A DNA stretch of 64,000 nt from Patescibacteria group bacterium (GTDB lineage: Bacteria > Patescibacteriota > Patescibacteriia > SCPX01): NCBI GenBank assembly GCA_004298615.1, contig SCPX01000056.1, positions 6,876 through 70,875 on the forward strand, read 5' to 3'. Shown here one piece after another: positions 44,454-61,956 of the stretch. Position 1 is the first letter of the stretch; each line of letters begins with the position of its first letter. The translations under genes were made by a program, and so were the position numbers. The notes below the pieces were generated by a model, which saw nothing but the letters and a program-made list of their open reading frames with translations, was not told the DNA's origin and searched no databases.

Positions 44454-44484
44454 AAGGGGTAAATAGTTTATTTACCCCTTTTTG
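44454..44484 (+). terminator. Rho-independent terminator (aaggggtaaata-gtt-tatttacccctt followed by tttg)
   Basis: Seen in sequence. Confidence 0.7.
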
Positions 44485-45954: not shown

Positions 45955-45982
45955 ATTTTATTTAATCTTGCTTTTGTTCTTT

Positions 45983-46025
45983 AAAGTCCAAACTTTTTTA
46001 GTTAAAAGTTTGGACTTTTTTTTAT
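45983..46025 (+). terminator. Rho-independent terminator (aaagtccaaactttt-ttagtt-aaaagtttggacttt followed by ttttta)
   Basis: Seen in sequence. Confidence 0.7.
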
Positions 46026-46156
46026 CCGTTTTCTCTTAAAATTATTCTAAACCATTGCAATTTAATGAAAATTCGGCTATACTGTTTATGTTTTTAAGGA
46101 GATTATTATTTTTTTAAGTGCGGATCAATGAGTTTTGATGGTATATTCATCAAGAT

Positions 46157-48328
46157 TTGTTGACGCGCATTTGTCTCTTCTCTATGCATGAGAGCTCGTT
46201 TTTTCTCGTCGTTTTGGCGGTTTCGTTCCTTTTATTTTTAGCCGCTTATGTGGCGGTTTATGTAAAGCAGATCCGTTTGCCTTATACCGTGGCGTTGACG
46301 GTCTTTGGAATAATTTTAAGCATTTTATCCCGTTTTGCGCCGTTTGATTTTTTAAATGTATTGGAACTTTCGCCCGATCTGGTATTTTATTTATTTTTGC
46401 CAATGCTTATTTTTGAAGGCGCGTACAATATGAAATTTTTGGAGTTGCGCGCGAATTTTAAAACGATTTCGGCTCTTGCGATCGGCAGTTTATTGGTCTC
46501 CGCTTTTTTCATCGGCTGGGCTTTATTTCAAGTTTTCAAAATGATCGGATTGGAAATTCCTTTTATCACTCTTTTACTTTTCGGGGCGCTTATTTCAGCC
46601 ACCGACCCGATCGCCGCTCTGGCGATTTTCAAAGAATTGGGCGTACCCAAAAGATTGCGACTGCTTTTGGAAGGGGAGAGTGTGGCCAATGACGGGACGG
46701 CTCTAGTGCTTTTTCAGGTGGTCTTAGGCATTGCCTCGGGCGGGGCATTGACCGCCTGGAAGCTGGCGGAAAGTTTTGGCAATTTTTGGTTTTTGGTCGG
46801 CGGAGGAATTATTTTCGGAAGCGTTTTAGGGATTATTTTTTCAAAATTGATAGAGCGGATAAGAAATTTAGCCGTTGTGGAAATTACTTTAACATTGGTT
46901 CTCGCCCATACGGCTTTTATTTTTGCGGAAAAATTTCTTCATGTTTCGGGAATTATCGCCACGGCAAGCGCAGCTATGCTGATAGGAAATTACGGCCGGT
47001 ATAAAATTTCTCCGGAAGTGCGGAGCTTTATGGAACATTTTTGGGAGTATATGGCTTTTGTAGCCAACTCCCTTATTTTTTTGCTAATCGGGCTTTCCAT
47101 CCGTGAAGCGCGTTTTGGAAATTACATCTGGCCGATCATAATAGCTTTGGCGGTCGTATTTATCGCACGATTCGTTTCCGTTTACGCGGTAATCCCGTTT
47201 ACCAACAAATTAGCCAAGGAAGAAAAAACGCCTTTTTCCTGGCAATTTATCCTGTCTTGGGGCGGATTGCGCGGCGCTTTGCCTATGGCCATCGTGCTTA
47301 TCTTGCCGGCCGACTCGCCGTTTTTACCGGCCGAACATCGGGAGTTACTTTTAGTTTTGACGGTTTCCGTGATTTATTTTACTCTGCTTTTTCAAGCGCC
47401 GACTTTGACGAAATTTTTAAATAGATTTAGGTTGACGGTCTTGACTCCGGTCCAGCAATTGGAACAGGAAGAAGGATTTTTACTTATGGACTCGGCCATT
47501 TTGAAAAAGCTTGACGAAATGAAAGCGAGCGGGAAATTACCGGCAAGCACTCATGAGCGTCTGCGCGAGCTTTACGCCGGACTTCATAAAGATGCCGAAC
47601 AAAGATTGCGGACGCTGTTAAAAGACCGAGGCGAGATTTTATCGCACGAAGAAATGCTTTTTATATTGCGCAAGCATTTGCTGGGAATTGAGCGGCAAGC
47701 GTACATCCGTCTTTTTGACAAGCACGAGATTTCCGAAAGAATGCTGGTGGTTTTAAAAGATAAAATAGACAGGCAGATTGACCGCTTGGAAAGACGAGTG
47801 CCGCAAGCGGCCGCGGTGGGCAAAGGCAGCCGTCTGGCTTTTTGGGAATTGGAACAGAAAATTTATAAATTTATTGATAAAATCAATATCGCCTTTGTGA
47901 AAAATTGGTCTAAAAACCGAAAGCTTGATTTTGAAATTGAAGTTTATCAGAAATACCGCGCCAGAAAAATTGCCGTTGAAAAAGCGATGAAAGAGCTTGA
48001 CAATATCACGGCGACGCGCGTTTTTATCGACCAGGCGGTCATTGATGCCGTAAGGAAACAATACGATTATTGGTTTGAAAATTCTCTAAAAAGATTGGAT
48101 GAAATGGAAAAGAAAAATCCCATCCTCATTGAATCAATCAGATTCGTGATCGGGAATACCGTATCTATAGCCCTTGAGCAAAAAATACTCCGCGAATTGC
48201 TGCAAAAAGGAATTTTGGCGGAAAACGCTTATGCCGAAGTAAACGATTATCTTCACGGCCTGATTGTTGAAAAACATGATGTTAAGAAAATGTATTTTAA
48301 GGAATTAAAAGAAAGAGGAATGGCTTAA
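46157..48328 (+). CDS. Na+/H+ antiporter of the CPA1 (NhaP) type with a long cytoplasmic regulatory C-terminal domain
   Basis: The TM domain carries 'ATDPIAALAIF' and 'GESVANDGTALVLF'. A C-terminal soluble domain of about 300 aa follows. Confidence 0.75.
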   Translation: MLTRICLFSMHESSFFLVVLAVSFLLFLAAYVAVYVKQIRLPYTVALTVFGIILSILSRFAPFDFLNVLELSPDLVFYLFLPMLIFEGAYNMKFLELRANFKTISALAIGSLLVSAFFIGWALFQVFKMIGLEIPFITLLLFGALISATDPIAALAIFKELGVPKRLRLLLEGESVANDGTALVLFQVVLGIASGGALTAWKLAESFGNFWFLVGGGIIFGSVLGIIFSKLIERIRNLAVVEITLTLVLAHTAFIFAEKFLHVSGIIATASAAMLIGNYGRYKISPEVRSFMEHFWEYMAFVANSLIFLLIGLSIREARFGNYIWPIIIALAVVFIARFVSVYAVIPFTNKLAKEEKTPFSWQFILSWGGLRGALPMAIVLILPADSPFLPAEHRELLLVLTVSVIYFTLLFQAPTLTKFLNRFRLTVLTPVQQLEQEEGFLLMDSAILKKLDEMKASGKLPASTHERLRELYAGLHKDAEQRLRTLLKDRGEILSHEEMLFILRKHLLGIERQAYIRLFDKHEISERMLVVLKDKIDRQIDRLERRVPQAAAVGKGSRLAFWELEQKIYKFIDKINIAFVKNWSKNRKLDFEIEVYQKYRARKIAVEKAMKELDNITATRVFIDQAVIDAVRKQYDYWFENSLKRLDEMEKKNPILIESIRFVIGNTVSIALEQKILRELLQKGILAENAYAEVNDYLHGLIVEKHDVKKMYFKELKERGMA

Positions 48329-48435
48329 GATAGCGCATAATTTGCTAACCTTAGCCAAAATACCGCAAAAGTCTTGCCAAAAACTAATTTTTGGTTTATA
48401 ATGAGCCAATTTGGTTAAAATTAATTCAAATAAAA

Positions 48436-49254
48436 ATGGCTAAAGAATTGGAAATTTCAATCGCGGCCGAACCGATTTTTCATATTGGATCTTTTGCCGT
48501 CACAAACTCGCTATTGAATTCTTGGGTCGCGGTTGTAATAATCGTAATATTATCAATGTTGATAAGGCGAAAAATAACCCGCGTGCCAAGAGGATTGCAA
48601 AATGTTGTTGAAATGATTTTTGAACAAGCTTTGACCTTGGCCGATTCCATCACCGGTTCGCGTGAAAAATCAATGAAATTTTTACCCATAGTTCTCCCGC
48701 TTTTTACTTTTATATTGATAAATAATTGGCTGGGAATCCTGCCGGGCATCGGTTCCATAGGATTTTTTGAAGGAGAAGGGGATCATAAACTGTTTGTTCC
48801 GTTTTTTCGCGGCGCGACCGCCGATTTGAATACCACTTTGGCTCTAGCCGTTGTGACCATAATTTTGACGCACATATTCGGAGTGATAATGACCGGCGCT
48901 TGGAGCCATTTTAATAAATTTATAAGAATCAATCTTTTTCTGGAATTGCCCAGAAAAGTTTTTAAAGAAAAAGAATACTCGGCTCTGCTCACCAATCCGA
49001 TTCAATTTTTCGTCGGTTTGATTGAAATAGTCGGAGAGTTGGCAAAAGTGGCATCGTTGTCTTTCCGGTTGTTCGGCAATATTTTCGCCGGCGAAGTGCT
49101 GATGGGAGCGATTGCTTTGATTTTCGCCTACGCTTTGCCCATACCGTTTATGTTTTTGGAAATGATCGTGGGAATTGTGCAGGCGCTGATTTTCTCAATT
49201 CTGGCATTGGTTTTTATGAGCATTATGTCAACGGATCATGCGCACGAACATTAA
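48436..49254 (+). CDS. atpB: F0 ATP synthase subunit a (operon copy)
   Basis: It has the 'SFRLFGNIFAGEVLM' signature and is the first gene of the atp operon. Confidence 0.85.
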   Translation: MAKELEISIAAEPIFHIGSFAVTNSLLNSWVAVVIIVILSMLIRRKITRVPRGLQNVVEMIFEQALTLADSITGSREKSMKFLPIVLPLFTFILINNWLGILPGIGSIGFFEGEGDHKLFVPFFRGATADLNTTLALAVVTIILTHIFGVIMTGAWSHFNKFIRINLFLELPRKVFKEKEYSALLTNPIQFFVGLIEIVGELAKVASLSFRLFGNIFAGEVLMGAIALIFAYALPIPFMFLEMIVGIVQALIFSILALVFMSIMSTDHAHEH

Positions 49255-49323
49255 TTTATGTTTATTATTAAAAATTATTAATTAATAATGCGATCTTCTT
49301 GAAAAAGAAAGAATCGCGCATAA

Positions 49324-49545
<222 letters not shown>

Positions 49546-49557
49546 TTAAAAAATACC

Positions 49558-50061
49558 ATGGAATCAATCATTGAAACATTTCATCTTGATTGGAAATTAT
49601 TTTTAGCCCAAGCGGTGAATTTCACCATTGTGGCGGTGGTTTTGTGGCGCTTTGCTTTCAAGCCGTTGGCGAAAAATCTGTCCGAACGGACCAAAACCAT
49701 TGAAAAAAGCCTGAAGCAAGCCAAGGAAATCGCGGAACAAAGAGAAGAGATGCTGAAATTGCGCGAACAGGCCGTGCTGGAAGCGCAGATTGAAGCCAAA
49801 AAAGTGATTGATGAGACCAGCAATAAGATGAAAGAATACGAAGAACAGATGCGGATTAAAACGCAAAATCAAGCGGAAGTTATTTTAACCAAAGCCAAGT
49901 CCGATATTCAGGAAGAGAAAGGAAAAATGTTGAGCGAGGTCAGACAAGAAGCGGCCGATTTGGTGGTAATGGCTTTGGAAAAAGTTTTGCAGGAAAAAGT
50001 CACGGCCGATTTGGATAAAAAATTGGCGGAAAAAGCGGTTAATAGCATTGCGACGAATTAA
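49558..50061 (+). CDS. atpF: F0 ATP synthase subunit b
   Basis: An N-terminal TM helix is followed by a long charged helix. Confidence 0.8.
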   Translation: MESIIETFHLDWKLFLAQAVNFTIVAVVLWRFAFKPLAKNLSERTKTIEKSLKQAKEIAEQREEMLKLREQAVLEAQIEAKKVIDETSNKMKEYEEQMRIKTQNQAEVILTKAKSDIQEEKGKMLSEVRQEAADLVVMALEKVLQEKVTADLDKKLAEKAVNSIATN

Positions 50062-50066
50062 TTATT

Positions 50067-50456
50067 ATGAAAAAAATAAATGCAAAACATTACGCTCAAG
50101 CGCTTTCCAGAATTTCCGGCGCTCCGGATTTAAGCGTTGTTTTGGATAATTTTTTTAACTTGGTTCGGAAAAACGGCCAATTGTCCGGATTGGGAGAAAT
50201 ATTAAGCGAATACGAACGCATAGCGCTGGAAAAAAAAGAAGGTATTGCCGCGGATTTGTCAGTGGCTGCTTCGGAGAATAAGACAATAATCACGGAGATG
50301 ATTAAACGGATAAAAATTCCCGGCATTGAAAAATTTAAAATTACCGCCAGAGACGACAAAGATCTTTTAGGCGGATTTAAATTACGCGTCAGGGATATTT
50401 TGATAGACGCCGGCTTAAAGAAAAAAATTACTGACCTTAAGAAATCATTTAATTAG
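50067..50456 (+). CDS. atpH: ATP synthase subunit delta (OSCP), short form
   Basis: Assigned by position between atpF and atpA, with the OSCP-like C-terminus '[16 protein letters not shown]'. Confidence 0.6.
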
Positions 50457-50457
50457 T

Positions 50458-51975
50458 ATGCCCAATGACGAACGGATTATCCGGTATTTACAAGAAAAAA
50501 TCAATCAATTCGCGCCTAAAACTGAAATTGAGCGCGTAGGCACCGTGACCGAAGTGGCTGACGGCGTGGCAAGAATAGACGGACTATCTAACGCGGCGGC
50601 CAGTGAAATGCTTGAATTTATCACCAAAGACAACGAAGTTATAAATGGAATGGTTTTGAACCTGGAAGAAGATTCGGTCGGCGCCATGATTCTCGGAGAT
50701 TACGCCAAAATAAAAGAAGGCGATACGGTCAAATCAACCGGCCGGATTTTATCAATTCCGGTGGGCGATGAATTGCTTTCACGGGTGATTGATCCTTTGT
50801 GCAATCCCGTGGACGGCCGGGGACAGATAGAATCGTCAAAATACTATCCGGTTGAGAAAAAAGCGCCCGGGGTGATTGAGCGCGAATCCGTGAAAAGCCC
50901 GCTCCAGACCGGCATCAAGGCCGTTGATACGATGATTCCGATCGGCCGGGGGCAGCGGGAATTGATTATTGGCGACAGGCAGACCGGAAAATCCCAAATC
51001 GCCATTGATACGATTATTAATCAAAAAGGGCAAAATACGATTTGCATTTATGTGGCGATCGGGCAAAAAGAATCAAAAATCGCGCGCATCGCGGCCAGAT
51101 TGGAAGAAGCGGGAGCTATGGATTACACGATTGTGGTGGTGGCGGGCGCGTCTGATCCGGCGCCGCTTTCTTTTCTCGCGCCGTATTCCGGCTGCGCCAT
51201 TGGAGAATATTTTATGGATCAGGGAAAAGATGTTTTGATCGTGTATGACGATCTTTCCAAACACGCGACAAGCTACCGGCAGGTATCTCTGATTTTGCGA
51301 CGGCCCCCCGGCAGGGAAGCATACCCGGGCGATGTTTTTTATCTGCACTCCAGGCTTTTGGAAAGGTCTTGCAAATTATCCAAAGAATTGGGCGGGGGGA
51401 GTATCACCGCTTTGCCGATTATTGAAACGCAAGCCGGCGATGTATCCGCTTATATTCCGACCAATGTTATTTCCATAACGGACGGCCAGATATATCTTGA
51501 AGGCGACCTTTTTTATCAAGGAGTGCGGCCGGCCGTCAATGTGGGTCTTTCCGTTTCCCGCGTGGGATCGGCGGCGCAGACCAAAGCAATGAAAAAAGTG
51601 GCCGGAAAAATCCGCTTGGAATTGGCGCAATATCGGGAATTGGCGGCGTTCGCGCAATTTGCGTCCGATCTTGACGAGACGACCAAGAAACAAATTGAGC
51701 GGGGAAAAAGATTGGTGGAAGTATTGAAGCAAGACCAATTCAGTCCGATGTCAATGGAGCATCAGGTAGCCATAATTTACGCGGCTATAAACAGTTATAT
51801 TGATGATGTGGCGGTTGAGAAAGTGAAGGACTTTGAAAATCAGTTTCATTCTTATCTTGACGCGAGTTTCGGAGGCTTGATGAAAAAACTGGGAGAACAA
51901 AAAGAGCTTACACCGGAAATTGAAAAGGAATTAAAAAAAGCGATAGAGGTTTTTAAAAAAGTTTATGGCCAGTAA
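50458..51975 (+). CDS. atpA: ATP synthase subunit alpha
   Basis: It has a Walker A motif ('GDRQTGKS') and the 'ITDGQIYLE' motif. Confidence 0.95.
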
Positions 51976-52861
51976 TACGCGCCAAATCAGAAGGCAAATC
52001 AAATCCATTAAAAATACGGCGAAAATTACGCGCGCGATGGAAATGATTTCAGCCGTTAAGCTGCAAAAAACTCAAGCGCAGGCTTTGGCTTCACGCGCTT
52101 ATTCGCTTGCCGCCAAAGAAATTCTGGAAAAGCTCACTCTGGGCATTGAAACAAGCGAGCATCCTTTTTTCATCGAGCGGCCGATAGAGCGAATCGGCAT
52201 TATCGTAATGTCGTCCAATCGCGGATTGTGCGGAAGCCTGAACGGCAATATTTTGAAAACCGTTTTGGATTATGAAAAAAATATTTTAGTGAATTTTCCC
52301 GGCGCTGAAATTTCTTACATTACAATGGGAAAAAAAATTCGCGACAGCCTGGCCAGGCTTGGAAAAAATATTTTAGCCGATTTTCCCAAACCGGACATCG
52401 CTTTGAATAGTTTGCCGGCCGTCCCATTGGCGAATTTGGCGGTTGAGGAATTTTCCAAGAAAAATCTGGATCGCGTGGTTATGATTTTTCCCGAATCAGT
52501 TTCAATCGTTAATCAAAAACCGATCGTTTTGCAGCTTTTGCCTCTGGCGTATGAATTTGCCGAAGAAGCGGCCGAAAAAGAAGCTGAAAAAAAACGCCGC
52601 ATTTCTTATATTTTTGAGCCGACCAAAGAGGAGATTTTGGGGCAAGCGCTCGTGAGACTTTTAGAAACGCGGGTTTTTCAATCGCTTTTGGAAGCCAATG
52701 CCGCGGAGCACGCGGCCAGAATGGTGGCTATGAAAAACGCGACCGACAGCGCCAAGGATTTGGTTGACGATCTGACGCTTTTTTACAACCGCACCCGCCA
52801 AGCCGCGATCACTCAAGAAGTATCGGAAATCACTTCGGGACGGTTGGCGCTTGAAAATTAA
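51965..52861 (+). CDS. atpG: ATP synthase subunit gamma
   Basis: The gamma-subunit N-terminus '[26 protein letters not shown]' is present. It overlaps atpA by 11 nt. Confidence 0.9.
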
Positions 52862-52892
52862 ATATGATTTATATTTAAATACTTAATACTAA

Positions 52893-54293
<1,401 letters not shown>

Positions 54294-54302
54294 AGTGGTA
54301 AT

Positions 54303-54725
54303 ATGTCAAAGAAGATCCATTTTCAAATAGTCACGCCGGAAAAAGTCGCGTATAAGGATGATGTTGATTCTATTACTTTGTCTACGCAAATAGGAGAAAT
54401 TACCGTTTTGCCGGATCACGCGCCTTTGATTTCATCTTTAAAATCAGGCGAGGCGATTATCAAAAAAGACGGAGAGGAATTAAGCATTGCCGTTTCCGGA
54501 GGATTTCTTCAAATCCAGCCGAAAAATAGAGCGGTGGTATTGGCGGATGCGGCCGAGCGGGCCGAAGAAATTTCCGAAGAGCGGGCCGAGGAAGCGAGGA
54601 AGCGGGCCGAAGAAATTTTAAAAGAAAAAAGATTGGATAAGGCCGAAATGGCCACGGCCGCCGCCGCTTTGGAAAAATCGTTAATACGATTAAAAGTCGC
54701 GCGGAGGCGGACCGGAAGACGCTAA
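54303..54725 (+). CDS. atpC: ATP synthase subunit epsilon
   Basis: It has an N-terminal beta-sandwich and a C-terminal helical hairpin. Confidence 0.85.
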   Translation: MSKKIHFQIVTPEKVAYKDDVDSITLSTQIGEITVLPDHAPLISSLKSGEAIIKKDGEELSIAVSGGFLQIQPKNRAVVLADAAERAEEISEERAEEARKRAEEILKEKRLDKAEMATAAAALEKSLIRLKVARRRTGRR

Positions 54726-54728: not shown

Positions 54729-55268
54729 ATGTTCAGACTTTTTTATAAAATTTTTACCACGCCAAAAACCGTCATAAGCGCTGATGATTTGAATTGCGAG
54801 CAGGCGGAAGTGAATGCTATCGGCGCGAAGATTCAAGAAAAAGTGAAAAAGCTTTTTCGGGGATCTCTGGCTATAAGAATGGTGGATGCCGGATCAACCA
54901 ACGCGGCCGAGTATGAATTGACGGCTTTGTCCAACGCTTTTTACGATGCGGACAGATTCGGAATTCATTTTGTGGCCTCGCCGAAGCACGCGGATATGCT
55001 TATAGTCACCGGGCCGGTGACGAGAAATATGAAAAACGCCTTGATCAAGGCCTACGAGGCAACTCCTGATCCAAAAATCGTCGTGGCGCTGGGAGACGAT
55101 GCCATAGACGGCGGAATTTTCAAAGGATCTTACGCGACTTATGACGGAGTGAAAAAAGTAATACCGGTTGATTATGAAATTCCCGGCGATCCGCCCAGTC
55201 CCAAAACAATCCTTTGCCATTTATTGAAAATCATCGGAACAATTGAAGCTAAACGGGCAGGAGGATAA
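54729..55268 (+). CDS. NuoB/HyfI-like (complex-I 20-kDa / hydrogenase small-subunit homologue) lacking all four [4Fe-4S] cysteine ligands
   Basis: Alignment to NuoB by eye gives 'FVASPKHADMLIVTGPVT' = 'FRASPRQSDVMIVAGTLT'. 'VVALGDDAIDGG' corresponds to 'ISMGSCANSGG' (Cys to Asp). 'IPVDYEIPGDPPSP' corresponds to 'VPVDIYVPGCPPT' (Cys to Asp). The CCxxE box is replaced by 'DAGSTNAAE'. Confidence 0.75.
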   Translation: MFRLFYKIFTTPKTVISADDLNCEQAEVNAIGAKIQEKVKKLFRGSLAIRMVDAGSTNAAEYELTALSNAFYDADRFGIHFVASPKHADMLIVTGPVTRNMKNALIKAYEATPDPKIVVALGDDAIDGGIFKGSYATYDGVKKVIPVDYEIPGDPPSPKTILCHLLKIIGTIEAKRAGG

Positions 55269-55274: not shown

Positions 55275-57326
55275 TTGGATATGCAAGAATTAATATTGTC
55301 TCAAACTGTTTTTTTCGCCGTATTGGCGTTGTTTGGCTTGGGAGCGATATCCTCTTTATTTTTCAGAAAAGATGATAAGTTGGCGAATTTAGCCGGAAGT
55401 TTTTTCGCCATTTTAGGATCGCTTTTAGGAATTGTTTACGCGGTTGCCGCCCTGTATTCCGATACATCGATTTTTTATGAGATGAAATCATCTTTTCCCT
55501 TGTTGTCATATAATTTCAATATAGATCGGCTCGCCGCGTTTTTTATTTTCATAATTTCCTTGATCTCGCTTTTTTGTTCAATTTATGGCGCAGGTTACAT
55601 AAAACATTTTTACGGAAAATACAATATCGGCACGCTTGGATTTTTTTACAATCTTTTTATCGCGGGAATGCTTTTGGTCGTCTCTTCCTCTAATATTTTA
55701 TTTTTCCTCATTGCCTGGGAAATAATGTCTTTGGCGTCTTATTTTCTGGTTATTTACGAACGGGACAAGCAGGAAAATATAAAAGCCGGATTTCTGTATT
55801 TTGTAATGACGCATATTGGCACCGCTTTTATAATTTTGGCGCTTTTATTGCTGTATAAGTTCGCCGGATCTTTTGATTTTTTGGCGATAAAAGAAGCCGT
55901 CGGGAGTATTCCGCCGCTTGCGAAAGACGCGATTTTTATTCTCGCTTTTATCGGTTTCGGCACAAAAGCGGGAATTATCCCAATGCATATCTGGCTGCCC
56001 GCCGCTCATCCGGCCGCGCCGTCCCATGTTTCCGCCTTGATGTCCGGCGTGATGATCAAGACCGGAATTTATATGATGATTCGTATATTTTTTGATATTC
56101 TGCCAAATGCTCCGGTTTGGTGGGGAACGGTGATTTTAATTTGCGGCGCCACTTCGGCTCTTTTAGGAGTTTTGTACGCGCTTACCGAGCATGACATCAA
56201 AAGACTTTTGGCTTATCACAGCATAGAAAATATCGGCATAATTCTTTTGGGTCTGGGCTCTGCTCTGGTTTTTGCAGCACTTAATATGAAATCGTTTGCG
56301 GCACTGGCTCTTATTGCTTCTCTTTTTCATATTTTAAACCACGCTGTTTTTAAGTCGCTTTTATTTTTGGGCGCCGGATCAGTGATTTCAAAAACTCATA
56401 CGAGAAATATTGAAGAATACGGCGGACTCATCAAACATATGCCGCAGACTGCGCTGTTTTTTCTGGCCGGATCAATGGCTATCTCCGCTCTTCCGCCTTT
56501 CAACGGTTTTTTCAGCGAATGGCTGACATTTCAAGCGCTGTTTGAAGGAATAAAATCAATGAGCTCGTTTTATCGCTGGATTTTTGTTTTTTCAGCCGGA
56601 TCTTTGGTCCTGACAAGCGGTTTGGCGCTGGCTTGTTTTGTTAAGGCCTTTGGTCTGACATTTTTGGCCCGACCGAGAAGCGAGGCAGTAAAGCACGCCA
56701 AAGAATCCTCATTTTCTTTGAGGCTCGGAATGGCGACTTTGGCGGTTTTATGTTTGCTTCTTGGCTTGTTATCAGGATTTTTATTCGCGATTTTTAATAA
56801 GATATTGCAAGGCATAAAATCTTTCGGCGATTATGATCCGGCGCTGGTTGTTTCGCAAAATCATCTCATCAGCGTCAACGGCGGATTTTCCTCAATTTCC
56901 GCTCCGGCGATTTTTGCCGTATTGATTTTGGCCGGTATTGCCGCGTTCGCGATAATCCGCTTAATTTCAAAAGATCAAAAAGTAAAAATCGGCGCCACTT
57001 GGGATTGCGGGACAAATCTCGGTCCCAGAATGGAAATCACTTCCACCGGATTTTCCCGGACGATTATTATGATTTTTAAAGGAATATTAAAGCCGAGCAA
57101 ACAAGCGGGGATTGAATATTCTGACGCCAATATGAGATATTTCCCAAAATCAAGAACTATGGTTTTTGAGATAAGTGATGTTTACAAAAAATATTTTTAC
57201 AAGCCGCTTTATAGTTTTGTTTTTAAAATTTCCGCGCGAGTCAAAAAAATACAAAGCGGCAATGTCAATGCCTATGTTTTATACATCTTTATGGCTTTGA
57301 TATTATTGCTGTTTTTCGCGGTTTAA
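55275..57326 (+). CDS. NuoL/MrpA/HyfB-like antiporter-type membrane subunit
   Basis: It is 683 aa with a Proton_antipo_M core ('WLPAAHPAAPSHVSALMSGVMIKTGIY'). Confidence 0.75.
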   Translation: MDMQELILSQTVFFAVLALFGLGAISSLFFRKDDKLANLAGSFFAILGSLLGIVYAVAALYSDTSIFYEMKSSFPLLSYNFNIDRLAAFFIFIISLISLFCSIYGAGYIKHFYGKYNIGTLGFFYNLFIAGMLLVVSSSNILFFLIAWEIMSLASYFLVIYERDKQENIKAGFLYFVMTHIGTAFIILALLLLYKFAGSFDFLAIKEAVGSIPPLAKDAIFILAFIGFGTKAGIIPMHIWLPAAHPAAPSHVSALMSGVMIKTGIYMMIRIFFDILPNAPVWWGTVILICGATSALLGVLYALTEHDIKRLLAYHSIENIGIILLGLGSALVFAALNMKSFAALALIASLFHILNHAVFKSLLFLGAGSVISKTHTRNIEEYGGLIKHMPQTALFFLAGSMAISALPPFNGFFSEWLTFQALFEGIKSMSSFYRWIFVFSAGSLVLTSGLALACFVKAFGLTFLARPRSEAVKHAKESSFSLRLGMATLAVLCLLLGLLSGFLFAIFNKILQGIKSFGDYDPALVVSQNHLISVNGGFSSISAPAIFAVLILAGIAAFAIIRLISKDQKVKIGATWDCGTNLGPRMEITSTGFSRTIIMIFKGILKPSKQAGIEYSDANMRYFPKSRTMVFEISDVYKKYFYKPLYSFVFKISARVKKIQSGNVNAYVLYIFMALILLLFFAV

Positions 57327-57335: not shown

Positions 57336-58265
57336 ATGGAAAATATAATCAACTGGACAATTCAAATTTTGCTCTTGCCGGCCTTGTCGCCGCTCTGTGT
57401 CGGCATTATCAGAAAAATAAAAGCGCGCTTTCAAAATCGCCAAGGAGCGAGCGTTTTTCAGCCATATAATGATCTGTGGAAGCTTTTTCATAAAGACGAG
57501 GTGATAAGCTCTGACGCTTCCTGGATATTCCGTTTCGCGCCGTTTGCGATTTTTGGAGCGACTTTGGCAGTCTCGGCCAGTCTTCCGATTTTCGCCTCGT
57601 TTTTGTCAAATAATTTCACGAGCGATATTTTAGCGGTTATTTATATTCTGGCGATCGGTACTTTTTTCTTGGCGCTCGCCGGATTGGATGTCGGGGGAGC
57701 TTTCGGGGGATTTGGTTCAAGCCGGGAGATGACCGTGTCGGCGCTGGCCGAAGGCGGACTTTTATTTTCATTGCTCGTCCTTTCTTTCATGAGCGGAACG
57801 ACTAACCTTTTTTCAATTTCCGGCACCATTGATTCTTTGCCTCTCGCGTCTCTCTTGCCGGTTGTTCTGGCATTCTTGGGATTCTTTATCGTTTTATTGG
57901 CGGAGACGGCCCGCTTTCCTTTTGACAATCCGTCCACTCATCTTGAGCTTACGATGATCCACGAAGCGATGATAATTGAATATTCCGGAAAGCGGCTTGC
58001 CCTGATTGAATGGGCATCGGCCAATAAGCTGTTAATTTTCATAACGCTCGGCTCAAGTCTGTTTTTCCCAATAGGCATTGCCCATTCCATGGGCGTGATC
58101 GCGATAGCCGCCGCTATTTTATTTTATCTTTTGAAAGTCCTGGTTTTTTGCGTAGCCGTCGCCATTATTGAATCCGGCATTGCCAAACTTCGTCTTTTTC
58201 GGCTTCCGGATTTGCTGCTTTTTTCTTTTATTTTAAGCGTTATCGCCCTTGGTTTGATAATTTAA
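57336..58265 (+). CDS. NuoH/HycD-like membrane subunit
   Basis: Its N-terminus 'IRKIKARFQNRQGASVFQPYNDLWKLF' matches the HycD/NuoH 'RxGPxxxQxxxDxxKL' block; it has about 8 TM helices. Confidence 0.75.
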   Translation: MENIINWTIQILLLPALSPLCVGIIRKIKARFQNRQGASVFQPYNDLWKLFHKDEVISSDASWIFRFAPFAIFGATLAVSASLPIFASFLSNNFTSDILAVIYILAIGTFFLALAGLDVGGAFGGFGSSREMTVSALAEGGLLFSLLVLSFMSGTTNLFSISGTIDSLPLASLLPVVLAFLGFFIVLLAETARFPFDNPSTHLELTMIHEAMIIEYSGKRLALIEWASANKLLIFITLGSSLFFPIGIAHSMGVIAIAAAILFYLLKVLVFCVAVAIIESGIAKLRLFRLPDLLLFSFILSVIALGLII

Positions 58266-58268: not shown

Positions 58269-58931
58269 ATGATTGACGCGATGAACAATTCATTTTTTCA
58301 ATTTACGGCAATCACGGCGGTTTTTTTGTCAGCCGTGCTGCTCCATATTACGAAAAGAAATTCAACTGCGGTCTCCTTGTATTTTATCCAATCGCTCGCC
58401 GTGGCCGCTTTGCTTTTCCGGCCGCTGTTTGAAAATTTCTCTTTGGCCGTTCTGCTGATGGCCGGATTGACTTTGGCGATAAAAGCCGCAGTCGCGCCGC
58501 TTTTCTTTTCAAGATTGATCAAAAGACATCAATTGAAATTTTCCGCCAGCACTTATTTGAATACGCCGCTGACTTTGATCGTCATAGCCGCTCTTGCCGC
58601 GCTGACCAATTCTCGGATTTTTTCCCACATCGCGTCGATTGATCCGGACAATAAAAAAATATTGGGACTGGCTATTGCCGTGATCCTCGTATCTTTTTTT
58701 CTGATCATCAATCGCAAAGGCGCCGTGTCGCAAATCATCGGGATTCTGTCGCTGGAGAACGGGATCGTCGCTTTTGCTTTGTTTTCCGGACTGGAACAAT
58801 CGCCGGCGCTCCAAATCGGCGTGATATTTGATCTTTTTGTCTGGGTGATTATTGCCGCCGTTTTTATTTCAATGATCTATAAGCAATTCGGTTCGCTTGA
58901 TGTGACCGAACTGAAGCATTTGAAAGAATAA
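58269..58931 (+). CDS. HyfE-like small membrane subunit (NuoK-related)
   Basis: Its 220-aa size and position match hyfE. It has 6-7 TM helices; motif support is weak. Confidence 0.5.
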   Translation: MIDAMNNSFFQFTAITAVFLSAVLLHITKRNSTAVSLYFIQSLAVAALLFRPLFENFSLAVLLMAGLTLAIKAAVAPLFFSRLIKRHQLKFSASTYLNTPLTLIVIAALAALTNSRIFSHIASIDPDNKKILGLAIAVILVSFFLIINRKGAVSQIIGILSLENGIVAFALFSGLEQSPALQIGVIFDLFVWVIIAAVFISMIYKQFGSLDVTELKHLKE

Positions 58932-58934: not shown

Positions 58935-60383
58935 TTGAATATGGAATTGATTTTAATCATCGGATCTCCCATAGTCGCTTCAATCGCCAGTTTTTTTTCA
59001 AGCAAAAGAAAAGCCTGCGAAACAGCGACAATAATCGCCGGAGCCGTTGCTTTGGCCGCAGCGCTGTTTGCCGTGCTTAAAGTTTCCTCCGAAGGGACTT
59101 ATTCGCCCAATGATTATTTTTCAATTGACGCGCTTGGAGCCATAATTATCTCATTGATAGCTTTCATCGGCTTTATTGCCGCGCTGTATTCAACGGCTTA
59201 CTTGAGAAGGGAAACGGAAAAGGGGATAATTGGCTTTGAAAAAGTCAGGCTTTACTTCATTCTTTTCAATTTATTCATCGCGGCTATGTTTTTGGCCGCT
59301 TCCACTTCCAATCCCATAATAATGTGGATCGCCATTGAAGGCACCACTCTTTCCACGGCGTTTTTGATCAGTTTTTACAATAAGCCGTCCGCTATGGAGG
59401 CGGCGTGGAAATATTTGATCATCAATTCAATCGGATTACTCTTGGGATTTTTCGGCACCTTGCTTTTTTACACGGCCCTGACGCACGGAGAGGGAATTGC
59501 ATTCAGCTGGGATTCTTTGATGGATAGCGCCAAAAATCTTGATCCGATGATTGCGAAAATCGCTTTTATATTCATATTGGTCGGCTACGGAACAAAGACC
59601 GGCTTGGCGCCAATGCACACTTGGCTTCCCGACGCTCACAGCAAAGCGCCGGCGCCCGTCAGCGGACTTTTGTCCGGTTTGCTGCTTAATGTCGCGATGC
59701 TGGCCATTTTGCGTTTTAAAGTCGTGGCCGATGCCGCGATTGGCGGACAGTTTACCGGCAACTTATTGATTTGGTTCGGTCTAATCTCAATTGTTTTGGC
59801 GGGCTTTATCATAATGGTGCAGAAAAATTACAAACGCTTGTTCGCTTATTCCAGTATTGAAAATATGGGAATCGCGGCTATGGGATTCGGCTTCGGCGGA
59901 ATCGGATCGTTCGCGGCTATTCTTCATATAATTTATCACGCGCTGGCCAAATCGCTTCTTTTCTTCTCGTCCGGCAACATATTTTTACGATACAGTTCCA
60001 CAAAAATCGCCAAAGTGAAAGGAATGTTGTCCGCAATTCCGGCCACGAGCCTTGTCGTTGTGATAGGATTTTTGACAATCGTCGGCGTTCCGCCTTTCGG
60101 AATATTTATGACAAAGTTTTATATTTTGTCCGAAGGTTTGAAAACCCATCCTGTCCAAACGATTATCGCGCTGGTTTCGTTCGTCATTATTTTTGTCGGT
60201 TTCCTGACTCACGCCGCGGCTTTGCTCTTCGGCAATGCGCCCGAAGAGATTTCCAAAGAAAAAGAAAACAAGTGGACAATTATTCCACTGGCGATTTTAA
60301 TAATCGCTTTTGTCGTTTTGAGCGTATATTTGCCGCCACCGCTTAAAATCCTGATTGACTCCGCTTTAATCAAATACCAATAA
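58935..60383 (+). CDS. NuoM/N / HyfF-like antiporter-type membrane subunit
   Basis: It has the Proton_antipo_M motif 'GLAPMHTWLPDAHSKAPAPVSGLLSGLLLNVAM'. Confidence 0.7.
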   Translation: MNMELILIIGSPIVASIASFFSSKRKACETATIIAGAVALAAALFAVLKVSSEGTYSPNDYFSIDALGAIIISLIAFIGFIAALYSTAYLRRETEKGIIGFEKVRLYFILFNLFIAAMFLAASTSNPIIMWIAIEGTTLSTAFLISFYNKPSAMEAAWKYLIINSIGLLLGFFGTLLFYTALTHGEGIAFSWDSLMDSAKNLDPMIAKIAFIFILVGYGTKTGLAPMHTWLPDAHSKAPAPVSGLLSGLLLNVAMLAILRFKVVADAAIGGQFTGNLLIWFGLISIVLAGFIIMVQKNYKRLFAYSSIENMGIAAMGFGFGGIGSFAAILHIIYHALAKSLLFFSSGNIFLRYSSTKIAKVKGMLSAIPATSLVVVIGFLTIVGVPPFGIFMTKFYILSEGLKTHPVQTIIALVSFVIIFVGFLTHAAALLFGNAPEEISKEKENKWTIIPLAILIIAFVVLSVYLPPPLKILIDSALIKYQ

Positions 60384-60384: not shown

Positions 60385-61956
60385 ATGAATAACAATGAAA
60401 TAATCGCCAAATATCTGCCGGCGCATGCGGATGTAAAAATCAATAATAATTTTATCGCATTTGAGATTCCGCACTCTTCGCTGAAAGAGATTGTTTGCGA
60501 TCTTTACCGCAAGCACAATCTGCCGCTAAAGACCATAACCGCGGCAGATGAAAGGGAAGAAAACGGCTGTTTTAAGATATTCTATGCGTTTGGAGCGCCG
60601 AAAGAAAATATTTTTGTGGCGCCCTTTATCAGGATTGAAAGCTCTGAGGAATTTCCTTCTTTGACTTCGGAAATTCACGAAGCGTCAACTTATGAAAGAA
60701 AAATAAAAACTTTTTTCGGCCTAAATCCCATTGGCCATCCGAATCCGCGGACATTGATTCTTCACGAGAATTGGCCCAATGGTTTATTTCCTTTGAGAAA
60801 AGATTTTAACTGGCAGACCCGTCCGGCCGAGGCCAAGGAACATTTTGAATTTTATAAAATAGAAGGGGAGGGGATTTATGAAATTCCGGTGGGGCCGATC
60901 CACGCAGGAATTATTGAGCCGGGACATTTCCGTTTCAATGTGGCCGGAGAAGAGATTTTGAATCTTGAGCCGCGGCTCGGTTTTGTGCACAAAGGAAGCG
61001 AGAAATTGTTTGAGATTTTGCCGCTTGAAAAAAAATTGATTTTATCCGAGAAAATTTCCGGCGACAGCGCTTTTTCTCATTCTCTTGCTTTTTGCCAAGC
61101 CGTAGAGTCTTTGGGCGGGATCAATGTTCCGGAGCGGGCCAAATATTTGAGAGTCGTATACGCGGAACTGGAAAGACTGGCCAATCATTTGGGCGACATC
61201 GGCTTCATAATGCTTGACACCGGATTTAATTTCGGCGGGGCAAACGGCAGCCGCTTGAGAGAAATGATAATGCAGATAAACGAGCGATTGACCGGCAGCC
61301 GGTTTTTGCGCGGGGTAAATATTTTCGGAGGAGTCGCAAAAGACATAAACAGGCAAGCGGCAGATAAATTAATGGAGGATTTGGAAAATATCGTAAATGA
61401 TTTTTCCGAAGTGATTGAAGTGGCCGAAAACAGCGATTCGCTTTTGAACCGGCTGAAAGGCACGGGAATTGTCACGGGCCAAATTGCCAAAGATCATGGA
61501 GTAACCGGCGTGGCCGGGCGGGCGGGCGGAAGCAAAAATGACGCGAGAAAAGATTTCCCTTACGCGGCTTATGATAAATTGGATTTCCAGATCGCGGTTG
61601 AAGAAACAAGCGATGTTTACGCGCGATTCCGCGTCCGCATAAAAGAAGTTTATTCGTCTTTTGAAATAATAAAACAAGCTTTGGAAAATTTGCCGGAAGG
61701 AGCGGTTAATGCGCCCTTGGCGGCCGTCAATCTAACGCCGAACGCGCAGGCTTTGAGTATTGTTGAAGGTTGGCGCGGAGACATCGTATATTTCGCAATG
61801 ACTGACGCGCGGGGAAATATCAGCCGCGTTGATGTGCGGGATCCGTCTTTCTTAAATTGGACGGCCGCCGGACACGCCGGTCCGGGCAATATTGTTCCGG
61901 ACTTTCCTCTGATAAACAAGAGCTTTAATTTGTCGTATTCCGGAAACGATCTTTGA
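60385..61956 (+). CDS. HycE/HyfG-like fused NuoC-NuoD ([NiFe] large-subunit homologue) lacking all four Ni-Fe cysteine ligands
   Basis: 'PVGPIHAGIIEPGHFRF' aligns to the HycE/NuoD core. 'EKISGDSAFSHS' replaces the 'RVCGICGFAHS' L1 motif (both Cys to Ser). The C-terminal 'DVRDPSFLNW' replaces 'DPCYSC' (Cys to Ser and Cys to Asn). Confidence 0.75.
   Translation: MNNNEIIAKYLPAHADVKINNNFIAFEIPHSSLKEIVCDLYRKHNLPLKTITAADEREENGCFKIFYAFGAPKENIFVAPFIRIESSEEFPSLTSEIHEASTYERKIKTFFGLNPIGHPNPRTLILHENWPNGLFPLRKDFNWQTRPAEAKEHFEFYKIEGEGIYEIPVGPIHAGIIEPGHFRFNVAGEEILNLEPRLGFVHKGSEKLFEILPLEKKLILSEKISGDSAFSHSLAFCQAVESLGGINVPERAKYLRVVYAELERLANHLGDIGFIMLDTGFNFGGANGSRLREMIMQINERLTGSRFLRGVNIFGGVAKDINRQAADKLMEDLENIVNDFSEVIEVAENSDSLLNRLKGTGIVTGQIAKDHGVTGVAGRAGGSKNDARKDFPYAAYDKLDFQIAVEETSDVYARFRVRIKEVYSSFEIIKQALENLPEGAVNAPLAAVNLTPNAQALSIVEGWRGDIVYFAMTDARGNISRVDVRDPSFLNWTAAGHAGPGNIVPDFPLINKSFNLSYSGNDL

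Follow-up and report, generated by a model that had tools for sequence, protein, structure and literature searches.

What does a NuoB-like protein do in a membrane complex once the cysteines that held its iron-sulfur cluster have been replaced? The question is raised by a gene at positions 54729 to 55268 (plus strand, as are all features below) of a 64-kb stretch of Patescibacteria DNA, referred to here as the window. It is an ATG-started reading frame of 179 aa encoding a homologue of NuoB, HycG and MbhJ, which we call EhrS or simply the small subunit. The answer that we favor, with moderate confidence, is that the protein belongs to a six-subunit, Hyf-derived energy-converting hydrogenase-related (Ehr) membrane complex of Patescibacteria (CPR) which would be free of redox cofactors, translocate ions and be tied to the F-ATPase, an acidic pocket having taken the place of the cluster.

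Identity and fold of the small subunit

The initial annotation described the protein as NuoB-like, and this identity is borne out by its score against Pfam Oxidored_q6 (PF01058; 83.6 bits, cut-off 27), which places it among the homologues of NuoB and the group 4 small subunits, and by its best sequence relatives of solved structure, E. coli HycG (7z0s_G, E=9e-31) and P. furiosus MbhJ (6cfw_J, E=2e-27). Among the NCBIfam NuoB models, it reaches 111 for NF005012 (cut-off 116) and 98.4 for TIGR01957 (cut-off 142.7), and it stays far under every cut-off of the curated NCBIfam equivalog models. The AF2 model (pLDDT 87.3, pTM 0.80) superposes in Foldseek on MbhJ (6cfw_J) with a TM of 0.87, an rmsd of 1.2 Å and 40% identity, and NDUFS7, HycG and MbhJ are each matched with a Foldseek prob of 1.00. 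The conserved blocks said to flank the cluster ligands are all present, as SPKHAD, GDDAIDGG, IPVD and PGDPP. Judged by sequence and predicted fold, the reading frame is a genuine NuoB/HycG-type protein.

Residues at the former [4Fe-4S] ligand positions

Alignment to HycG, MbhJ and NDUFS7 places the four ligand positions at T57 (Cys1), A60 (Cys2), D124 (Cys3, GxCxxxGG) and D154 (Cys4, PGCPP); the two cysteines of the protein, C23 and C163, both lie off these positions. The claim that the cluster cysteines have been replaced thus holds at all four sites, and the absence of cysteines is the part of the initial annotation that alignment to NuoB/HycG/MbhJ homologues upheld. The proposed Asp/Val/Asp pattern and the loss of the CCxxE box did not survive it. 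Of the three references, NDUFS7 alone has a Cys (RGCDR) where the proposed Val, V141 of YDGVKKVIPVD, stands (HycG has T and MbhJ has L), and from established complex I structures we take this Cys not to be an N2 ligand; the hydrogenase-type box GSCNGC[E/D] is still there as GSTNAAE (G55-S-T57-N-A-A60-E61).

The core of this former N-terminal box, T57-N-A-A60-E61 (54897 to 54911), aligns with GGCNGCEIE of HycG and GSCNGCDIE of MbhJ. E61 is kept in all 120 closest homologues and in 98% of 259 Cys-less relatives, in which position 57 is S, T or D and position 60 is E, C or A. In the GxCxxxGG block (D123-D124-A-I-D127, 55095 to 55109), D124 replaces Cys3. Its two acidic neighbors are not substitutions: the block is GDCxxDGG in the closest relatives that still have the cysteines, so D123 and D127 go back to the ancestor of the subfamily and predate the cluster loss, a point against reading the acidic pocket as a replacement. 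Among the 259 Cys-less relatives, D123 is 95% conserved, position 127 is D in 65%, and position 124 is split between D (51%) and G (46%). D154 (codon GAT, 55188 to 55190) replaces Cys4 of PGCPP, and D occurs at this position in 14/14 Patescibacteria-type loci and in 93% of the Cys-less relatives. The 120 closest homologues (69-92% identity) have D at position 124 in 119 cases and E in 1; at position 154, 114 of them have D and the other 6 have N, a constancy that chance would not produce.

A carboxylate occupies position 60 or 124 in 97% of Cys-less sequences, and over seven pocket positions these sequences carry 4-6 carboxylates, against 1-3 in Cys-keeping relatives. As the initial annotation suggested, carboxylates at former Cys positions could bind a cation; their near-constant presence at 60 or 124 and the recurrent D/E at the Cys3 position speak for such a putative site, and the Gly that stands in for D124 across about half of the wider clade speaks against it. 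Residues at positions 60 and 124 pair as E/G (114 sequences), C or A/D (124), E/D (9) and other/G (about 4). We rejected this covariation as strong statistical evidence, as it mostly tracks two clades: Gly124 with Glu60 in about half of the sequences is essentially a two-clade difference, so that the apparent compensation amounts to few independent events.

Taken together, the four positions read differently from clade to clade (TADD, TCDD, DCDD, SEGD, NEGD, DVDS, SAES and others). This variability, like the Gly at position 124 in about 46%, favors an account to which we give a minority chance, namely that the small subunit is a structural relic, kept for assembly with the large and NuoH-like subunits, whose residues fill the cluster hole, and that a non-redox reaction or ligand event at the remodeled NiFe pocket drives or regulates ion movement. 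However, residues that only fill a hole need not be as regular as D154 and the acidic side chain at position 60 or 124. Moreover, although two nucleotide substitutions are needed to turn a Cys codon (TGY) into an Asp codon (GAY), D/E is found more than once at the Cys3 position, in lineages set apart on a rough NJ tree of small subunits (120 columns, no support values), which we read as an indication only. As such an indication, the tree suggests that the cluster was apparently lost more than once.

The six-gene cassette and the former NiFe site

Both the relic account and the acidic-pocket reading that we favor have to be set against the rest of the complex. The small subunit is the first gene of a cassette that continues with HyfB, HyfC/NuoH, HyfE, HyfF and a fused NuoC-NuoD, and all six reading frames are intact. 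The HyfB/HycC-like antiporter-type membrane subunit (683 aa, 55275 to 57326) scores 691.9 bits against the NCBIfam model "hydrogenase 4 subunit B" (cut-off 667), matches HycC (7z0s_C) at E=4e-86 and has the TM5 Glu (WEIMSLASY), the TM7 Lys and TM8 His (GTKAGIIPMHIWLPAAH) and the TM12 Lys (HAVFKS). The HyfC/HycD/NuoH-like membrane subunit (309 aa, 57336 to 58265; Pfam NADHdh, 1.2e-42) matches HycD (7z0s_D) at E=4e-42 and retains the acidic motifs AET..PFD..EYSG. It is followed by a HyfE-like membrane subunit with a NuoK-like C-terminal part (220 aa, 58269 to 58931; Pfam Oxidored_q2, 29.2 bits), which falls under the cut-off of the NCBIfam "hydrogenase 4 membrane subunit" model (4e-14) and is syntenic in 12/12 cassette loci, and by a second antiporter-type membrane subunit resembling HyfF (482 aa, 58935 to 60383; NCBIfam "hydrogenase 4 subunit F", 3e-136, under the cut-off), which matches MbhH (6cfw_H) at E=3e-37 and retains the motifs AIEGTT, GTKTGLAPMHTWLPDAH and HALAKS. 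As far as sequence can tell, the antiporter-like and NuoH-like subunits retain the canonical charged residues, which shows constraint, not activity.

The cassette ends with the large subunit, a fused homologue of NuoC and NuoD/HycE (523 aa, 60385 to 61956; Pfam Complex1_30kDa and Complex1_49kDa), which matches HycE (7z0s_E) at E=4e-80 and whose closest homologues are annotated as Patescibacteria or Azambacteria. Where HycE reads RVCGICGFAHS at L1, the large subunit reads KISGDSAFSHS, and at L2 it has FNLSYSGND in place of LDPCYSCTD, after which come a single L and then the stop codon, with no C-terminal processing extension. The four NiFe Cys positions are S225, S228, S517 and G520, and neither the L1 nor the L2 motif is present. 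The residues that now stand there are strictly kept. At the former L1 CxxC (S225-G-D227-S228, 61057 to 61068), S225, G226 and D227 do not vary across 121 homologues and position 228 is S or T; the same SGD[S/T] motif is found in 11/11 cassette loci and in a sister cassette that keeps its small-subunit cysteines (L017). At the former L2 CxxC, which is also the protein end (S517-Y-S-G520-N-D-L523, 61933 to 61953), S517 is conserved in 120/121 sequences and Y518, G520 and D522 in 121/121 each. This former NiFe pocket, with S225, G226, D227, Y518, G520 and D522 invariant in 121 sequences, is much stricter than the former cluster site, and its motifs are the same in cluster-bearing relatives, both of which favor the relic account. 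The invariant S-G-D-S/T...H and S-Y-S-G-N-D also count against a pure antiporter model, as they argue for specific ligand binding or chemistry at the former NiFe site.

Pfam and NCBIfam searches found no ferredoxin subunit of the NuoI/HycF/MbhN or HycB/HyfA type in the cassette. Among all ORFs of at least 60 aa in the 64-kb window, none has a CxxCxxCxxxC motif, nor is there a ferredoxin-type motif of this form in the cassettes of L017-L022. These absences bear on the idea that an oxygen-ligated metal center persists, be it mononuclear Fe, Mn or Zn or an Asp/Cys-ligated Fe-S cluster, and keeps the subunit redox-active or metal-dependent. Elsewhere, for example in some ferredoxins, Asp is known to serve as a ligand of [4Fe-4S] clusters, and many close homologues combine a Cys at position 60 with three carboxylates (DCDD in 26 sequences, TCDD in 54). 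Nonetheless, we rate such a center as improbable: neither Thr/Ala/Asp/Asp, the set in the window, nor Ser/Glu/Gly/Asp, that of a large sister clade, offers four plausible cluster ligands, and there is no electron-input subunit (NuoI) upstream and no acceptor site (NiFe) downstream. Patescibacteria of this type are not known to make quinones, which is a further argument against it. The missing quinone has been noted as a problem for other Ehr hosts as well (PMC6349859).

Age of the cluster loss and selection on the cassette

Is the Cys-less subunit a stable state or a passing one? Cys3 and Cys4 are absent from 259/259 sampled Cys-less relatives and from every sampled member of the window's own clade, down to 55% identity, and the Cys-less state is common to hundreds of homologues from different Patescibacteria MAGs. 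One related locus, L001 (91% identity), comes from a MAG named "Patescibacteria group bacterium". In contrast, the sister cassette P0246 (L017-L019; 52% identity), which has the orthologous six genes, keeps all four small-subunit cysteines (GSCNGCE, GDCARDCG and PGCPP in L017) next to a large subunit with SGDT and SYSGNDL. The initial annotation held that orthologues retaining the cysteines in sister genomes would indicate recent lineage-specific decay. Such an orthologue exists, in the sister cassette; the whole sampled clade of the window's own gene lacks Cys3 and Cys4, and because every sampled member does so, the loss is lineage-specific, yet ancient and fixed rather than recent. Since the large subunit of L017 is NiFe-less while its small subunit has four cysteines, the order of events can be read off: NiFe, together with the absence of NuoI, was lost first, and the small-subunit cluster later, in the Patescibacterial clade. 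A Nitrospiraceae locus (L015, 41% identity) was left out of the cassette loci, as it holds an ordinary Cys-containing NuoB beside NuoD.

The substitution rates point the same way. For the small subunit, dN/dS is 0.088 between the window and L001 and 0.08-0.23 in 9/10 pairs of five orthologues, one close pair being noisy, in line with purifying selection. The other five cassette genes give 0.074-0.127, and the ATP synthase genes of the same operon give 0.04-0.08 (atpA and atpD 0.04-0.05), comparable to the small subunit. By this measure, all six cassette genes are under purifying selection. The earlier proposal that the scaffold was retained under selection after cofactor loss has therefore stood up well, with dN/dS of about 0.09-0.2, a D124 codon that varies synonymously (GAT/GAC), a confident AF2 fold and hundreds of Cys-less homologues behind it. 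To the opposite view, that the locus is the pseudogenizing remnant of a hydrogenase operon in recent lineage-specific decay, we give practically no credence. The four cysteines of the 52%-identity sister cassette would suit it, but the six intact frames, dN/dS of 0.07-0.13, the confident predicted fold and the occurrence of the Cys-less state in many MAGs do not, and we regard it as refuted by the dN/dS values and the breadth of Cys-less homologues.

Genomic context

The cassette lies directly behind an F1Fo ATP synthase operon (48391 to 54725; atpB, atpE at 49333-49545, atpF, H, A, G, D and C; ORFs and Pfam), with 3 bp between the end of atpC and the start codon of the small subunit. A junction of this kind, with a gap of 2-3 bp, recurs in L001, L030, L031 and L032. 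At distances of up to 10 kb, atp genes also lie upstream of the cassette in L004 and L014 and downstream in L011 and L013; they are absent next to the cassette in L008, L009, L010 and L012, each of which has 8.6-10 kb of upstream sequence. Judging from the 3-bp gap, the atp operon and the cassette are probably co-transcribed; a promoter/terminator consensus scan of 46-64 kb gave terminator-like sites not over shuffled expectation. From the reading of its c-subunit motif, the ATP synthase would be of the H+ type. Upstream of the atp operon are three consecutive Na_H_Exchanger (CPA1-type) genes (43082 to 48328; Pfam PF00999, 5e-60, 7.5e-43 and 7e-65), which we mention as context. An Rfam scan of the window returned two tRNAs and nothing else.

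Outside the cassette, the only recurrent neighbors are the ATP synthase genes and, in four loci, a carbonic-anhydrase-like gene. The latter raises the prospect that the complex supplies the energy coupling for vectorial handling of CO2/bicarbonate, in a system comparable to DabAB/MpsAB or cyanobacterial NDH-1(3/4)-CupA, in which the gradient would drive, or be driven by, the carbonic-anhydrase-like partner. The protein in question (~347 aa, with a CsoSCA-like catalytic domain) is encoded right beside the cassette in four loci, L004, L007, L008 and L009, which show two different gene arrangements; it scores 40 and 34 bits against Pfam PF20686 (cut-off 21.5), a profile of three aligned sequences matches PDB 2fgy_A at E=1.4e-8, and the C-x-D-x-R, H and C positions of the zinc site and dyad are conserved. 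Nevertheless, the gene is absent from the 64-kb window and from 10/14 loci, nothing links its product physically to the complex, and a metagenome scan from the carbonic-anhydrase side found seven distant CA-like loci (~30% identity), none with Ehr genes, so that the association is confined to four Patescibacteria loci and this coupling is a long shot.

A proposed redox-free ion translocator

We return to the reading of the complex as a cofactor-free ion translocator. Because all Fe-S and NiFe sites have been lost, yet selection remains strong beside the ATP synthase genes, the complex most likely moves ions without redox chemistry. The lack of a cluster, of NiFe and of NuoI argues against electron transfer, and the complex would no longer carry it out. 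Instead, it may move ions as a secondary translocator, much as Mrp-type cation/proton antiporters do, and share its gradient with the H+-type F-ATPase. What would have kept the peripheral NuoB-NuoCD cap in place is its role in closing and gating the hydrophilic cavity over the NuoH-like subunit. The acidic pocket (E61, D123, either D124 or E60, D127 and D154), whose geometry is taken from homology to cluster-binding structures, would fill the room left by the [Fe4S4(Cys)4] center and roughly make up for its negative charge. It could serve as a protonatable or fixed charge, or as a candidate cation site that holds the fold and maybe reports ion occupancy to the membrane arm. A broader version, which we put forward as a tentative and rather unlikely extension, is that both former metal sites of this redox-free descendant of complex I and hydrogenases, the acidic pocket of the small subunit and the invariant S-G-D-S/T...S-Y-S-G-N-D pocket of the large one, are now conserved polar or acidic ligand sites, at which a bound cation, proton or small molecule gates an Mrp-like translocator coupled genetically and functionally to the F1Fo ATPase of respiration-less Patescibacteria and, in some lineages, also to the CsoSCA-like carbonic anhydrase.

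Implications

Proteins of this kind carry public annotations such as "hydrogenase", "Ni,Fe-hydrogenase III small subunit" and "NADH-quinone oxidoreductase subunit B family". Because the operon, as predicted here, cannot bind NiFe or a canonical Fe-S chain, metabolic reconstructions of CPR/Patescibacteria that count these proteins toward H2 or NADH metabolism would be wrong. An Ehr module under strong selection without an electron path points to a redox-independent role, at least in the Patescibacterial branch. Two antiporter-like subunits capped by cofactor-free NuoB/NuoD/NuoH homologues would provide a natural minimal system for asking what part the peripheral Q module has in gating the membrane arm across the complex I superfamily, and the close linkage of the cassette to the ATP synthase operon in organisms without respiratory chains bears on the way in which ultrasmall episymbionts generate or spend their membrane potential.

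Comparison with known systems

The small subunit shares with NuoB/Nqo6/NDUFS7, the carrier of cluster N2, the fold and the SPRxxD, GG, PVD and PGxPP blocks, and, like NuoB in complex I, it is placed between NuoD and NuoH homologues. However, N2 is bound through a tandem CC motif, whereas the Patescibacteria protein derives from the CxxC hydrogenase type; in MbhJ, four cysteines bind the proximal [4Fe-4S] cluster, and their equivalents here are T, A, D and D. The cassette as a whole differs from complex I (NDH-1) in having six genes only, none matching NuoE, F, G or I, and in lacking the N2 ligands. Mrp antiporters resemble it in their two antiporter-like subunits (Glu/Lys/His/Lys), the NuoK-like subunit, the lack of a redox cofactor and ion-handling neighbors, but the cassette is not a member of that group, as it has NuoH-, NuoB- and NuoCD-like genes and no identified MrpB, E, F or G homologues. 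The likeness to DabAB/MpsAB and NDH-1(3/4)-CupA, an antiporter-like subunit beside a beta-carbonic-anhydrase-like protein in four related loci, is a lead only: the neighboring gene resembles CsoSCA, not DabA (PF10070) or CupA, and it is absent from the window and most loci.

Among hydrogenases, the closest counterpart is E. coli HycG, from formate hydrogenlyase, or, in Hyf (hydrogenase-4, FHL-2), HyfI together with HyfB, C, E, F and G, which comprise the same subunit types and give the best sequence match for the small, large, HyfB and HyfC subunits. Compared with E. coli Hyf, the cassette lacks HyfA, HyfD, HyfH, the NiFe ligands and the [4Fe-4S] ligands, its small-subunit gene comes first, and its large subunit stops after L2, with no protease-cleaved extension. 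It has the membrane subunits of group 4 [NiFe] hydrogenases and lacks their L1/L2 motifs and the NuoI/HycF/MbhN subunit.

Finally, the cassette falls within the definition of Ehr, a group-4-hydrogenase-like cluster with a large subunit devoid of NiFe-binding motifs (PMC4378227, PMC10284858, PMC6349859). CPR Ehr complexes are already known: Jaffe et al. 2020 (PMC7304191) described large subunits without metal-binding cysteines and a monophyletic CPR Ehr clade, with which our cassette shares the NuoB-, NuoC/D-, NuoH- and NuoL/M/N-like subunits, the NiFe-less large subunit and CPR hosts. A search of the full-text literature on Ehr and CPR found no report of Cys-less NuoB homologues, although the first description of Ehr (Marreiros et al. 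2013) may mention them. The loss of the small-subunit cluster thus appears to be unreported in the searched literature, an absence that is not proof. The published Ehr accounts consulted here, PMC6349859 among them, treat the large subunit only and generally assume a cytoplasmic redox partner. In the Patescibacteria cassette, by contrast, the small-subunit ligands are gone too and a ferredoxin-type subunit is lacking, whereas the sister Ehr cassette L017 keeps its small-subunit cysteines.

Results

The small subunit and its former ligand positions

The gene at 54729..55268 (+ strand, ATG start) encodes a 179-aa small subunit, which matches the Pfam family Oxidored_q6 (NuoB/20-kDa subunit) with 83.6 bits (cut-off 27) but falls short of the curated NuoB cut-offs in NCBIfam (111 vs 116 and 98 vs 143). 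Its best solved relative by sequence is HycG of E. coli formate hydrogenlyase (7z0s_G, E=9e-31), followed by P. furiosus MbhJ (6cfw_J, E=2e-27), whereas NDUFS7/NuoB of complex I match more weakly (~1e-22). In a residue-by-residue alignment, T57, A60, D124, and D154 stand opposite the four [4Fe-4S] ligands of HycG and MbhJ (hereafter positions Cys1 to Cys4). The initial annotation, which saw a NuoB-like protein whose flanking blocks are intact and whose ligand cysteines are missing, was therefore right in its observation but partly wrong in its description. It took a valine for the middle ligand replacement; however, V141 faces a Cys present only in NDUFS7 (RGCDR), which in complex I structures is no cluster ligand, and the position is T in HycG and L in MbhJ. 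The supposedly lost CCxxE box is the hydrogenase-type G-S-C-N-G-C-E, which persists as G-S-T-N-A-A-E with E61 kept, and two of the aspartates, D123 and D127, are not substitutions, since the nearest Cys-keeping relatives have G-D-C-x-x-D-G-G.

Of the 120 database proteins most similar to the small subunit (69-92% identity), 119 have D and one has E at position 124; the split is 114 D to 6 N at position 154 and 113 D to 7 N at position 123. The species-representative genome collection yielded fourteen loci (55-91% identity), labelled mostly Patescibacteria, Parcubacteria, Paceibacterota, or Saccharibacteria, in which the Cys4 position is invariably D (14/14) and the Cys3 position either D (8 loci) or G (6 loci), with T/D/S at Cys1 and A/C/E at Cys2. 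Three pooled searches yielded 259 Cys-less sequences, mainly with SEGD (107), TCDD (54), DCDD (26), TADD (20, the type of the window), and DADD (11) at the four positions; D154, D123, and E61 are conserved in 93%, 95%, and 98% of them, respectively, and 97% carry a carboxylate at position 60 or 124. The pairing of E with G, and of C or A with D, at positions 60 and 124 is a striking 'compensation' but mostly separates two clades, and is thus not counted as many independent events. Over seven pocket positions, Cys-less sequences have 4-6 carboxylates and Cys-keeping relatives 1-3. A cation site in the small subunit is a reasonable hypothesis, although we consider a specific one rather unlikely; a rival reading of the same residues is a metal centre ligated by oxygen.

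Close homologues of the Cys-less cassette (55-74% identity, GC above the 0.44 of the window) were also found in MAGs labelled non-CPR: L003 (Syntrophus sp., GC 0.54), L012 (Actinomycetes, GC 0.60, 193-kb contig), P0079/P0118 (Syntrophales), and P0176 (Firestonebacteria). These could reflect lateral transfer or mis-binning.

A cassette lacking recognisable redox sites

The small-subunit gene is the first of six closely packed genes, the others encoding HyfB/HycC-like (55275-57326, above the NCBIfam 'hydrogenase 4 subunit B' cut-off), HyfC/HycD/NuoH-like (57336-58265), HyfE-like (58269-58931), and HyfF-like (58935-60383) subunits and a fused NuoC-NuoD/HycE-like large subunit (60385-61956); ComEC is the next gene. 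The order of the six genes is kept in all 11 sufficiently long loci among the fourteen. The HycE alignment spans the whole large subunit (E=4e-80), and the NiFe ligands are absent, with 'RVCGICGFAHS' and 'LDPCYSCTD' of HycE corresponding to 'KISGDSAFSHS' and 'FNLSYSGND'. Because the latter is directly followed by Leu and a stop codon, there is no C-terminal maturation extension. The cassette contains no gene for a NuoI/HycF- or HycB/HyfA-type ferredoxin subunit, and no CxxCxxCxxxC motif occurs in ORFs of at least 60 aa across the whole 64-kb window. Without NiFe ligands, cluster cysteines, or a ferredoxin subunit, the module therefore has no recognisable site of electron entry, relay, or exit; the conserved six-subunit complex, of the energy-converting hydrogenase-related (Ehr) type, has ligands neither for NiFe nor for a canonical Fe-S cluster.

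The HyfB-like (WEIMSLASY / GTKAGIIPMHIWLPAAH / HAVFKS) and HyfF-like (AIEGTT / GTKTGLAPMHTWLPDAH / HALAKS) subunits keep the canonical antiporter-module residues, namely TM5 Glu, TM7 Lys, TM8 His, and TM12 Lys, and the acidic AET...PFD...EYSG motifs of HycD recur in the NuoH-like subunit. Across 121 homologues of the large subunit (62-96% identity), 145 positions show conservation of 97% or more, among them everything that surrounds the former NiFe site (E178-P-G-H-F-R-F, S225-G-D227, H232, and S517-Y-S-G-N-D522). Such strict constraint means that the former active-site pocket retains some specific role. According to one rival explanation, the real action lies in this pocket and the small-subunit residues are purely structural filler.

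Order of losses and selection

A 50%-identity representative search returned 5328 small-subunit relatives; among the best 150, ~100 have all four Cys and ~25 lack them. One Cys-keeping relative, P0246 (52% identity), belongs to a cassette of the same six genes, in a genome of 63% GC (L017-L019; 7356-14666 in L017). Its small subunit retains GSCNGCE, GDCARDCG, and PGCPP, the Ehr motifs 'ERISGDTTIGHS' and 'SYSGNDL' are already present in the accompanying large subunit, and the cassette includes no ferredoxin-type gene. The [4Fe-4S] cluster of L017-L019 is thus an 'orphan' for which neither an electron donor nor an acceptor is evident; just 5' of the cassette lies an ArsR/HTH_5-type regulator gene. 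Since this NiFe-less cassette has four Cys, loss of the NiFe site (and of any NuoI) came first and orphaned the cluster, which subsequently disappeared in the lineage ancestral to the Patescibacterial clade. In a rough NJ tree, other Cys-less types (DVDD/DVDS, ECED/SAES, TDES, DCDN, and TCGN) fall elsewhere in the family, often again with D/E at Cys3, which suggests further independent cluster losses. Three of these lineages were inspected and all reside in Ehr-like cassettes with a different gene order and no ferredoxin-type genes. On a 71%-GC contig (L021), a large subunit (2481-4013) retaining both NiFe CxxC pairs (GACGVCSVTH; ELCYACTDR) accompanies a small subunit, P0252 (4019-4624), with S/A/E/S at the cluster positions, and may represent a NiFe site without proximal cluster.

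Compared with the closest genome locus, L001 (from a MAG named 'Patescibacteria group bacterium', 91% aa identity), the small subunit of the window has a Nei-Gojobori dN/dS of 0.088; the remaining five cassette genes have 0.074-0.127, and AtpA and AtpD of the same stretch 0.04-0.05. Pairwise small-subunit values among five orthologues are 0.08-0.23 in all of the ten pairs except a near-identical one (0.47, noisy at dS 0.07), and the D124 codon varies synonymously (GAT/GAC). The AlphaFold2 model (52 homologues) is confident (pLDDT 87.3, pTM 0.80) and close to MbhJ (TM 0.87, rmsd 1.2 Å), so that the fold is predicted not to need the cluster. The proposal of a scaffold kept under selection after cofactor loss is supported by these values and by the Cys-less state across relatives. 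Sister orthologues retaining the cysteines, which the initial annotation would have taken as a sign of recent decay, do exist, but the depth of the loss shows it to be ancient, clade-wide, and repeatedly convergent; together with the low dN/dS and the confident fold model, this rules out recent decay. The small subunit is very probably a stable, cofactor-free component of the Ehr complex.

Genomic neighbourhood

Outside the cassette, only ATP synthase genes and a CsoSCA-like gene recur as neighbours. In the window, a complete F1Fo ATP synthase operon (48391-54725) ends in atpC, whose stop codon lies 3 bp ahead of the cassette; the gap is 2-3 bp in the window, L001, L030, L031, and L032. The atp genes are upstream of the cassette in L004 and L014 and downstream in L011 and L013, and none occur within the available 8.6-10 kb of upstream sequence in L008, L009, L010, and L012. 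The Ehr-type complex is under purifying selection, with intact ion-translocation residues and a genetic link to the F-ATPase. Three consecutive CPA1-type Na+/H+ exchanger genes (43082-48328; 434, 444, and 723 aa) directly precede the ATP synthase operon, forming with it and the cassette a ~19-kb ion-handling block. The 70-aa c subunit (49333-49545) has Ala after the ion-binding Glu, not the Ser/Thr characteristic of Na+-binding c rings; from this motif only, we infer an H+-coupled rather than Na+-coupled enzyme.

The CsoSCA-like protein (~347 aa, with a beta-class carbonic anhydrase domain of the carboxysome-shell type) adjoins the cassette in four Patescibacteria loci, arranged in two ways (L004, 8357-9409, +; L007, 2709-3734, -; L008, 8793-9833, -; L009, 7378-8418, -), with conserved Zn-ligand and dyad positions C-x-D-x-R (CMDGR), H107, and C117. 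The arrangement recalls DabAB/MpsAB and NDH-1-CupA, and a CO2/bicarbonate-coupled system is a rival explanation for the complex; however, the 64-kb window holds no CsoSCA-like gene, and a search from the carbonic-anhydrase side recovered only distant homologues with no Ehr genes near them.

Elsewhere in the window, the genes for a DsbD_2 membrane domain fused to a cupredoxin-like domain and for a nearby heavy-metal (HMA) P-type ATPase (22317-23381 and 24040-26316) look like a copper-handling pair, a ~1460-aa protein with PKD, DUF11, and DUF7507 repeats (7773-12164) is probably a surface protein, as typical for episymbiotic Patescibacteria, and two DUF2207 membrane proteins are encoded in tandem (2093-5600).

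Discussion

Ehr complexes were reportedly defined in 2013. They have repeatedly been described as group-4-like clusters of unknown function whose large subunit lacks CxxC motifs (PMC6349859, PMC4378227, PMC10284858), and their redox partners have been sought (PMC6349859). Jaffe et al. 2020 recovered a monophyletic CPR Ehr clade with large subunits devoid of metal-binding cysteines, which 'likely cannot interact with H2', in a treatment that does not extend to the small subunit (PMC7304191). Our literature search, with the founding Ehr description outside its scope, returned no report of small-subunit cluster loss, conserved carboxylates, ferredoxin-type-subunit absence, or fusion to the atp operon. 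By its defining feature, the cassette is classed as an Ehr family member, yet in a putatively fully cofactor-free form.

Such a complex would be independent of redox chemistry and would act as a secondary ion translocator, through Mrp-like cation/proton exchange or other pmf-linked ion movement, sharing an ion circuit with the ATPase in an organism without a respiratory chain; we give ion translocation in concert with the ATPase an even chance. The NuoB-NuoCD cap would be kept to close and gate the cavity over the NuoH-like subunit, with the acidic pocket standing in for the space and negative charge once provided by the [Fe4S4(Cys)4] centre, either through a charge of its own, protonatable or fixed, or perhaps by cation binding.

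The gene family itself is not new, but bacteria without respiration that tie a conserved, redox-free complex-I-like module to their ATP synthase offer a useful, testable system, and the cofactor-free reading would correct widespread 'hydrogenase / NADH dehydrogenase' annotations. The small subunit is no functional NuoB, the complex no hydrogenase, and, even though it may work like one, no member of the Mrp antiporters.
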